A stretch of DNA of 64,000 nucleotides from Carcharhinus amblyrhynchos (lineage: Eukaryota), in the NCBI GenBank assembly GCA_965287045.1, contig OZ336876.1, forward strand, positions 3,224,001 through 3,288,000. Reading direction: 5' to 3'. The notes under the pieces were generated by a model. That model made no database searches. It was given only the letters and a program-made list of their open reading frames with translations, and had not been told where the DNA came from. Of this stretch, positions 2,238 through 51,061 are shown piece by piece (the stretch's first letter is position 1; every line of letters begins with the position of its first letter). Made by a program: the position numbers and the translations under genes.

Positions 2238-2552
2238 ATACTGTACGAATGCGATTGATTGGTGGGGAGGATTCTTGTTCAGGAAGAGTGGAGATTTTTT
2301 CTCACAGTATTTGGGGATCTGTCTGTGACGATGGTTGGGATATGAGTGATGCGAATGTGGTTTGTAAGCAAATGGGTTGCGGAGCCGCCAAATCGGCACT
2401 TCACGGCGCCCATTATGGTGCAGCCACTGGACCTTTTTGGATGGATGATGTTGCTTGCAAAGGTACAGAGTCTAACTTGCTACATTGTCAAGCAAAACCT
2501 TGGGGAGAGAATAACTGCAACTCTGCCAAAGCAGCCTCTGTTATTTGCACAG
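2238..2552 (+). CDS. Exon SRCR-A1 (group B SRCR, 8 Cys)
   Basis: ttttag|[46 protein letters not shown]|gtacga; 315 nt. Confidence 0.95.

Positions 2553-51061: not shown

Follow-up and report, generated by a model that had tools for sequence, protein, structure and literature searches.

The genome of the shark Carcharhinus amblyrhynchos carries a giant gene in which scavenger receptor cysteine-rich (SRCR) exons of group B are regularly interleaved with immunoglobulin (Ig) exons of the LILR type. Its predicted product has 2,518 amino acids and the whole-gene architecture SR4-Ig-(SR2-Ig)6-SR, with 17 SRCR and seven Ig domains. The gene is almost certainly real and intact, its product is very likely secreted and it probably derives from the leukocyte receptor complex (LRC). 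The stretch of 64,000 nucleotides that was analysed, called here the window, is the segment 3224001-3288000 of contig OZ336876.1 (contig C7 below); exon coordinates are window positions unless C7 is given.

Six-frame translation places the SRCR and Ig frames on the plus strand of the window. All 22 domain exons found there are 300-315 nt long, have AG and GT ends, are of phase 1-1 and keep an open frame. Fifteen of them match the Pfam SRCR family PF00530 (E 4e-23 to 2e-34) and seven match Pfam Ig families (PF13895, PF13927 or PF00047, best E 2e-7 to 9e-5), two of these seven falling short of the Pfam curated cut-offs. The proteins most similar to the array are those of sharks, in keeping with an origin in a cartilaginous fish. 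The splice-site check and Pfam confirm the 15 group-B SRCR and seven Ig open exons listed in an earlier note on this DNA, whose estimate of about 2,290 amino acids agrees with the 2,285 codons that the 22 exons yield after splicing in script.

The window array, all on the plus strand, opens with SR03 (type A, 2238..2552; splice sites, Pfam) and SR04 (type B, 4450..4764), where the second cysteine is gone and a new one stands near the end, four residues past the seventh. They are followed by IG1 (10341..10646; splice sites, Pfam). The next SRCR exons are each supported by splice sites, Pfam and the SRCR tree: SR05 (type A, 11847..12161) and SR06 (type B, 14098..14412) precede IG2 (15663..15962), an Ig exon two residues shorter that codes for a third cysteine; SR07 (type A, 17293..17607) and SR08 (type B, 18951..19265) precede IG3 (20792..21097; splice sites, Pfam); and SR09 (type A, 22379..22693) begins the fourth unit. 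Splice sites and Pfam identify SR10 (type B, 26273..26587) and IG4 (27431..27736), then SR11 (type A, 29189..29503), SR12 (type B, 32330..32644) and IG5 (34203..34508), the last also through a structure model, and likewise SR13 (type A, 36725..37039), SR14 (type B, 41722..42036) and IG6 (43354..43659). The array closes with SR15 (type A, 44273..44581, two residues shorter), SR16 (type B, 47301..47615, covered by contigs of probable RNA runs), IG7 (48493..48798, joined to SR17 in a probable-RNA contig) and SR17 (type A, 50046..50360; Pfam, contig cover), which is the last domain. A predicted last exon (51051..51510) supplies three codons and the stop (51051-51061) and then the 3' UTR, with an AATAAA at 51482; its 3' end is approximate. 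Two intronic runs of N (293 and 169 nt) were considered as places for hidden exons and rejected: neither is as long as the shortest domain exon, and no further exon is needed to complete the repeat.

Within the window the exons follow one another as (SR-SR-Ig)x7 with a final SR, and the three-exon repeat proposed earlier holds to that extent. It does not describe the whole gene, which begins with four SRCRs: profiles run over 264 kb matched two more SRCR exons on the plus strand 2-3 kb upstream of it, SR01 (C7 3220850-3221164) and SR02 (C7 3221480-3221794). The previously assigned gene extent is similarly correct for the window part only, the N-terminus lying upstream. There a 25-nt exon S1 with the start codon (C7 3215897-3215921, plus strand) and a 36-nt exon S2 (C7 3216235-3216270, plus strand) together encode a hydrophobic leader. 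Splicing of the 27 exons in script gives a single open frame. The predicted product is of 273 kDa before glycans, with 47 sequons, one to four of them in each Ig domain, and 151 cysteines. The count of cysteines in the mature chain is odd, so that a free thiol could link chains. The canonical eight cysteines are present in 16 of the 17 SRCRs of the gene (14 of the 15 in the window), the exception being SR04. Domain exons abut directly, with no linker exons between them.

Beyond the array, profiles matched two frameshifted, type A-like SRCR relics on the plus strand that are outside the gene model (59832..60136 and 60657..60971). They are separated by about 830 nt and could be former tail exons of the gene or the beginning of a dead paralogue. 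The bin of the second relic has a slight contig depth in run X1 (see below), possibly derived from a paralogue. Contig depth also marks high-copy interspersed repeats at window positions 51500-51600, 52950-53450, 59150-59290 and 61800-64000, the last of which resembles, by eye, a decayed LINE.

Transcript evidence comes from four runs of one study that are guessed to be RNA (none is recorded as RNA) and are ~2% divergent from the window. Three of them (X1, X2 and X3) and a DNA-sized run, X5, were mapped as contigs onto window 46650-64000. A 437-nt contig of X1 joins 48571-48796 to 50044-50254, which is the predicted IG7-SR17 intron shifted by a shared AG; contigs of X5 continue through the introns of this region. 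The numbers from X2 are nearly identical to those from X1, so that the two probably represent one data set. A contig of X3 begins at SR17 with 67 extra letters, and the depth of the IG7 bin matches (0.41 x 579). The expectation that Ig exons are spliced to SRCR exons is thereby borne out for the passage from an Ig to a type A SRCR; the passage from a type B SRCR to an Ig is not among the contigs. In the mapped part, one junction of the 25-26 in the gene is thus seen directly (IG7-SR17) and none of the SR-to-Ig junctions. Exons lacking contig cover were given no weight as evidence. A probable-RNA contig covers 51104-51277 inside the predicted last exon. A second X1 contig follows SR17 up to three letters from its end and has a remainder of 30 letters, and 236 unexplained depth-letters in the last-exon bin correspond to 30.3 letters at the depth of that contig. 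The acceptor at 51051 is the best of seven that fit the leftover letters, and from this depth bookkeeping we infer that SR17 is spliced to it.

The SRCR tree separates the domains into type A (10 domains, a starred clade) and type B (seven domains). The SRCR repeats are 45-75% identical and the Ig repeats 43-60%. Between repeats dN/dS is 0.19 for type A, 0.15 for type B and 0.35 for the Ig domains, and it is below 1 in every computable pair (32 of 36, 17 of 21 and 15 of 15), the remaining pairs being saturated. The repeats are under purifying selection. Values of 0.15-0.35 indicate that the array is not a chance product, the relics displaying local decay. In the basking shark the array is divided between P0004 and P0001, two RefSeq models that share a contig. 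Each of the eight SRCRs of P0001 finds its best match in SR10-SR17, in order, and three of the four Ig domains of that model match by position, more weakly. P0004 and P0001 together are the orthologue of the gene. It follows from these position-by-position matches that the array is old and has not been homogenised.

It is highly improbable that the exons belong to two or more tandem genes, or to a truncated and decaying gene, rather than to one protein. Such a reading would account for the split of the basking-shark array over two models, the two decayed SRCR exons downstream, the degraded calcium site and lost cysteine of SR04, and a contig depth that is low (3-8). However, all 24 domain exons are open with intact splice sites, and their order is conserved position by position with a distant shark. 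Within the array, moreover, a scan of the plus strand found no 36-nt leader-type exon, and beside it just one, which is upstream of SR01.

The sole hydrophobic stretch of the 2,518 residues is at the N-terminus. A hydrophobicity scan, tblastn with the tails of relatives and a profile search found no transmembrane exon downstream of the array. The profile was built from the membrane segments of 15 relatives and gives 50-53 bits on two minus-strand neighbours, both part of its training set. On the plus strand it scores nothing above 7.8 bits in C7:3274360-3448000, that is, over 174 kb past SR17. A genome search with one membrane exon as query returned the self-match only. A short hydrophobic frame in the last intron, at window ~50685-50750, where a membrane exon ought to lie, was tried as one and rejected: shuffled sequences do as well, and the depth bookkeeping assigns no contig cover to it.

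That the protein is instead a membrane receptor, with a transmembrane exon that escaped the search or belongs to an alternative splice form, seems very unlikely. The idea draws on the shorter carpet-shark and sevengill versions (P0007, P0009 and P0005), which, like the inverted neighbour described below, end in a membrane segment, and on SR17, which clusters with the last SRCR before the transmembrane segment of carpet sharks (94/89, unstarred). Against it stand the failure of the three plus-strand scans and of the candidate in the last intron, the position of the next gene, which is on the opposite strand and 20 kb further, and the basking-shark model P0001, which stops after the same SRCR without a membrane segment.

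The Ig domains had been described from the letters alone as LILR/KIR-like, and comparison with known structures bears this out. A profile of the seven Ig exons has PIR-B as its top match in the PDB, with VEGFR1, LILRs, CD276, Fc-alpha-RI, NKp46 and KIR next in order; its 33 PDB matches include no Fc-gamma receptor. The structure model of IG5 has a pLDDT of 94, and ranks 1-14 of its fold search are all LRC proteins (LILRB4, LILRA5, OSCAR, LILRB1, Fc-alpha-RI, LAIR1 and GPVI), the first Fc-gamma receptor appearing at rank 33. The Ig fold has FxL in place of the usual tryptophan, as in LRC Ig domains. A hamster LILR used as query had one genome match among 30 candidates, inside the C7 cluster (E 6.6e-4). 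For the SR-SR-Ig relative P0006 a single-sequence fold reached a pLDDT of 41.6, too low for the geometry between domains to be read from it.

LRC genes have their leader in two exons, the second of 36 bp. This rule has found no confirmation in the literature searched; the second leader exon is of 36 nt both in the gene and in its inverted neighbour. A split leader as such is non-discriminating, being also found in CD5L (PMC7940838).

A rather remote alternative is that the Ig domains stem from a different group of paired receptors (FCRL-, CD300- or HIDE1-like) that came to lie beside TTYH1, the family then paralleling the FCRLS gene discussed below and not belonging to the LRC. It is suggested by the Pfam family Ig_C19orf38 (HIDE1), which matches four of the seven Ig exons, and by a wider Ig profile, for which FCRL5 comes second in the PDB, after PIR-B. 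In an Ig tree of 49 rows with amniote references the shark domains are not placed inside the mammalian LRC group, the deep forks being weak or open. Per domain, amniote LRC-type proteins score 15-38 bits and a frog protein that bears the name FCRL5 scores 22-24 bits, and PMC6557307 cautions that LRC-type names given to non-mammalian proteins often mislead. The fold ranks, the marker linkage and the reciprocal LILR search nevertheless all favour the LRC, as does a second leader exon of 36 nt and not the 21 nt of FCR/FCRL genes; an LRC derivation is the probable one.

The genomic setting provides the marker linkage. Ig matches are concentrated on C7, 87 of 97 lying at 0.70-3.35 Mb, which defines a 2.6-Mb cluster of LILR-like Ig exons with the gene inside it. 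Further along the contig are a LENG9-type frame with MJ1316 and AKAP7 domains (4.095 Mb), an exon that matches human LENG8 (4.116 Mb, E 3e-32) and a Tweety copy that matches TTYH1 (4.14-4.17 Mb), the other two Tweety copies being TTYH3 and TTYH2. Ttyh1, Leng8 and Leng9 form one flank of the LRC (PMC6557307). The gene is 0.82-0.9 Mb from LENG9-LENG8-TTYH1 on C7, the reading of C7 ending at 3.45 Mb and resuming at 4.09 Mb. CNOT3, from the RPS9-CNOT3-PRPF31 flank of the LRC, and DNAAF3, from its distal flank, are on C35 and not on C7, so that LRC synteny is partial; a genome search found no match to PRPF31 in any contig. The LENG9-type domain occurs twice, at C7 4095339 and 4099820, 4.5 kb apart and with equal scores, as a tandem duplicate or an assembly artefact.

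The gene has several relatives in this genome. An inverted paralogue is encoded 55 kb upstream on the minus strand (C7:3139391-3165194), head to head with the gene, and consists of a 36-nt leader exon, five SRCR exons, an Ig exon, an SRCR exon and an arginine-bearing membrane exon. Another neighbour, also on the minus strand (C7:3294412-3307022), has three Ig exons, a tail of very few residues and a membrane exon that closely resembles those of activating LILRs. In the parts of it that were sampled, C7 carries at least four further SRCR+Ig arrays, and C108 carries one. The arrays at C108:564466-621053 and C7:1099748-1133115 are Ig-rich SRCR mosaics (SR-Ig-Ig), and sharks and rays have mosaics of identical architecture. 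Other large SRCR arrays are found on C34 (0.16-2.05 and 8.5-8.8 Mb), C1 (146.4-146.5 Mb), C3 (137.9-138.2 Mb) and C23 (41.2 Mb), with no Ig match listed there; these are probably clusters of the WC1/CD163/DMBT1 type.

The membrane segments of the two neighbours and of three shark relatives keep the arginine of the NxxR motif and lack its asparagine. A potential signalling partner is encoded by an FcR-gamma-like membrane exon at C189:322662-322745, with the aspartate kept, and an exon nearest to CD3-zeta is on C15. ITIM-like matches occur in the tails of the shark and ray relatives P0084, P0129 and P0050; none was located in this genome. A 2021 paper in Immunogenetics reportedly found one LRC-like gene in the elephant shark. 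For the shark genomes of 2014, PMC4016189 gives neither LRC homologues nor an FcR-gamma chain.

Compared with LRC genes (LILR/PIR, Fc-alpha-RI, NKp46, GPVI, OSCAR and the secreted A1BG), the shark gene and its cluster share one Ig domain per phase 1-1 exon, a large tandem arrangement, the TTYH1-LENG8-LENG9 flank, an arginine close to where the membrane segments of paralogues begin and the existence of members without a membrane exon. They differ in an identity of only ~20%, in the missing asparagine of NxxR and in the location of CNOT3 and DNAAF3 on another contig. We know of no described amniote LRC member with an SRCR domain.

DMBT1/SALSA is an array of SRCR domains with Ser/Thr linkers, then CUB and ZP domains, and CD163 and WC1 have an SRCR-only ectodomain and a transmembrane segment. 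The nearest solved relatives of the shark SRCRs are CD163, PIT54, CD5L, CD6 and DMBT1. With DMBT1/SALSA, CD163, WC1, CD5L and PIT54 the gene shares the eight-cysteine SRCR coded by one 315-nt exon, as well as a structural cation site that is kept in all 17 domains and a ligand site kept in part. It differs from these group-B proteins by its interleaved Ig domains, its genomic setting and the absence of CUB, ZP and Ser/Thr linker exons between domains. Its frame stops three codons past SR17, unlike that of DMBT1/SALSA, and in contrast to CD163 and WC1 it has seven interleaved Ig exons and no membrane exon was found.

The earlier note had also held that mammalian group-B SRCR proteins carry no Ig domain, which is contradicted by FCRLS, a secreted chimera of Ig and group-B SRCR domains present in many mammals (PMC7940838). 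FCRLS resembles the product predicted for the shark gene in being secreted, in combining receptor-type Ig with group-B SRCR, in having no transmembrane segment and in its split leader (PMC7940838). It has, however, one SRCR, FCRL-type Ig domains, a 21-bp second leader exon, a position beside CD5L and a eutherian origin (PMC7940838), against 17 SRCRs with seven LILR-like Ig domains, a 36-nt exon and the LENG9-LENG8-TTYH1 setting in the shark. The two genes are most likely independent fusions.

That SRCR+Ig gene models may exist under generic names proved an understatement: such models are common from chimaera to caecilian. Among 140 domain-hit representatives, 26 mix SRCR and Ig. Eighteen of the 19 mixers looked up could be named and belong to three rays, one shark, one chimaera, two coelacanth, one bowfin, nine teleosts and one caecilian, with no amniote among them. 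All searches together gave 50 proteins with both domains, four of which have two or more consecutive SR-SR-Ig units. The caecilian XP_033817435 shares such consecutive units with the shark gene. Automated models named 'DMBT1-like', 'M130-like' or 'IGSF1-like' contain the same two domain types and are mostly Ig-rich and membrane-bound, whereas in the shark gene SRCRs prevail, the order is regular and a membrane segment is missing. The domain mix is thus no new category, being known from FCRLS and common in automated models. No description of shark or fish SRCR-Ig mosaics, nor of any characterised protein with the 2:1 repeat, came up in the literature searched, most subscription journals lying outside its scope, and on the latter point the earlier note was right. 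New with respect to that literature are the regular giant secreted form and the presence of SRCR-Ig mosaics in an LRC-syntenic cluster of a shark.

Ligand binding by SALSA takes place via surface cations held by D1019, D1020 and E1086 (PMC7043408). When the calcium-site residues of SALSA are transferred to the shark SRCRs by equal spacing, the triad is exact in six of the 17 domains, conservative in four and broken in seven, with SR08, SR09, SR12 and SR16 among the intact cases and SR07 and SR15 among the broken ones; all 17 retain the buried site. Calcium-dependent binding of microbes is therefore plausible for only part of the SRCRs.

On balance, we lean towards a secreted, multivalent glycoprotein for innate recognition or decoy that belongs to an old, SRCR-bearing branch of the LRC. 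Its ancestor would have been a membrane-bound receptor whose transmembrane segment carried an arginine, like those of the neighbour and the carpet-shark and sevengill relatives. The three-exon unit A-B-Ig would have been duplicated repeatedly and the transmembrane exon lost after SR17. By analogy with SALSA/DMBT1, about 10 of the 17 SRCRs may bridge calcium to anionic ligands, and the Ig domains may supply protein-binding surfaces and spacing. The chain could then clump or coat its targets as an agglutinin or opsonin, and could compete as a decoy with membrane paralogues that would signal through FcR-gamma.

Another function, of lower though appreciable probability, would be that of a scavenger agglutinin like DMBT1, CD163 or WC1. 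Its Ig domains would serve just as stiff, glycosylated spacers where DMBT1 has Ser/Thr linkers, and its LRC address would reflect history, not function. The preponderance of SRCRs (17 of 24 domains) and the identity of their solved relatives are in keeping with such a role, and so are the abutting exons and the sequons of every Ig domain. Relatives in the same cluster are, however, Ig-rich or Ig-only and membrane-bound, which implies that this Ig type serves as a receptor domain elsewhere. The Ig repeats are also those that diverge fastest (see above), as expected from ligand diversification or from weak constraint. The role as a recognition or decoy molecule of the LRC branch is preferred.

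The time of origin of the LRC is called unclear in PMC6557307. The question becomes testable with one shark genome in which a large LILR-like cluster by TTYH1-LENG8-LENG9 occurs together with an FcR-gamma-like exon and membrane segments of the arginine type. Databases give the family wrong names, and a name of its own would put many fish annotations in order. The SRCR-Ig mosaics of the cluster suggest that a single family combined pattern recognition with paired-receptor signalling. Tentatively, cartilaginous fish may have a multi-megabase LRC whose oldest members are SRCR-Ig mosaics, scavenger modules having been part of the ancestral LILR/KIR-type kit of jawed vertebrates. Sharks, bony fish, coelacanth and caecilians would have retained such mosaics, and the line to amniotes would have lost them. 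The gene described here would be the giant secreted member of the cluster, a shark equivalent of soluble decoys of the A1BG type that is fused with an agglutinin.
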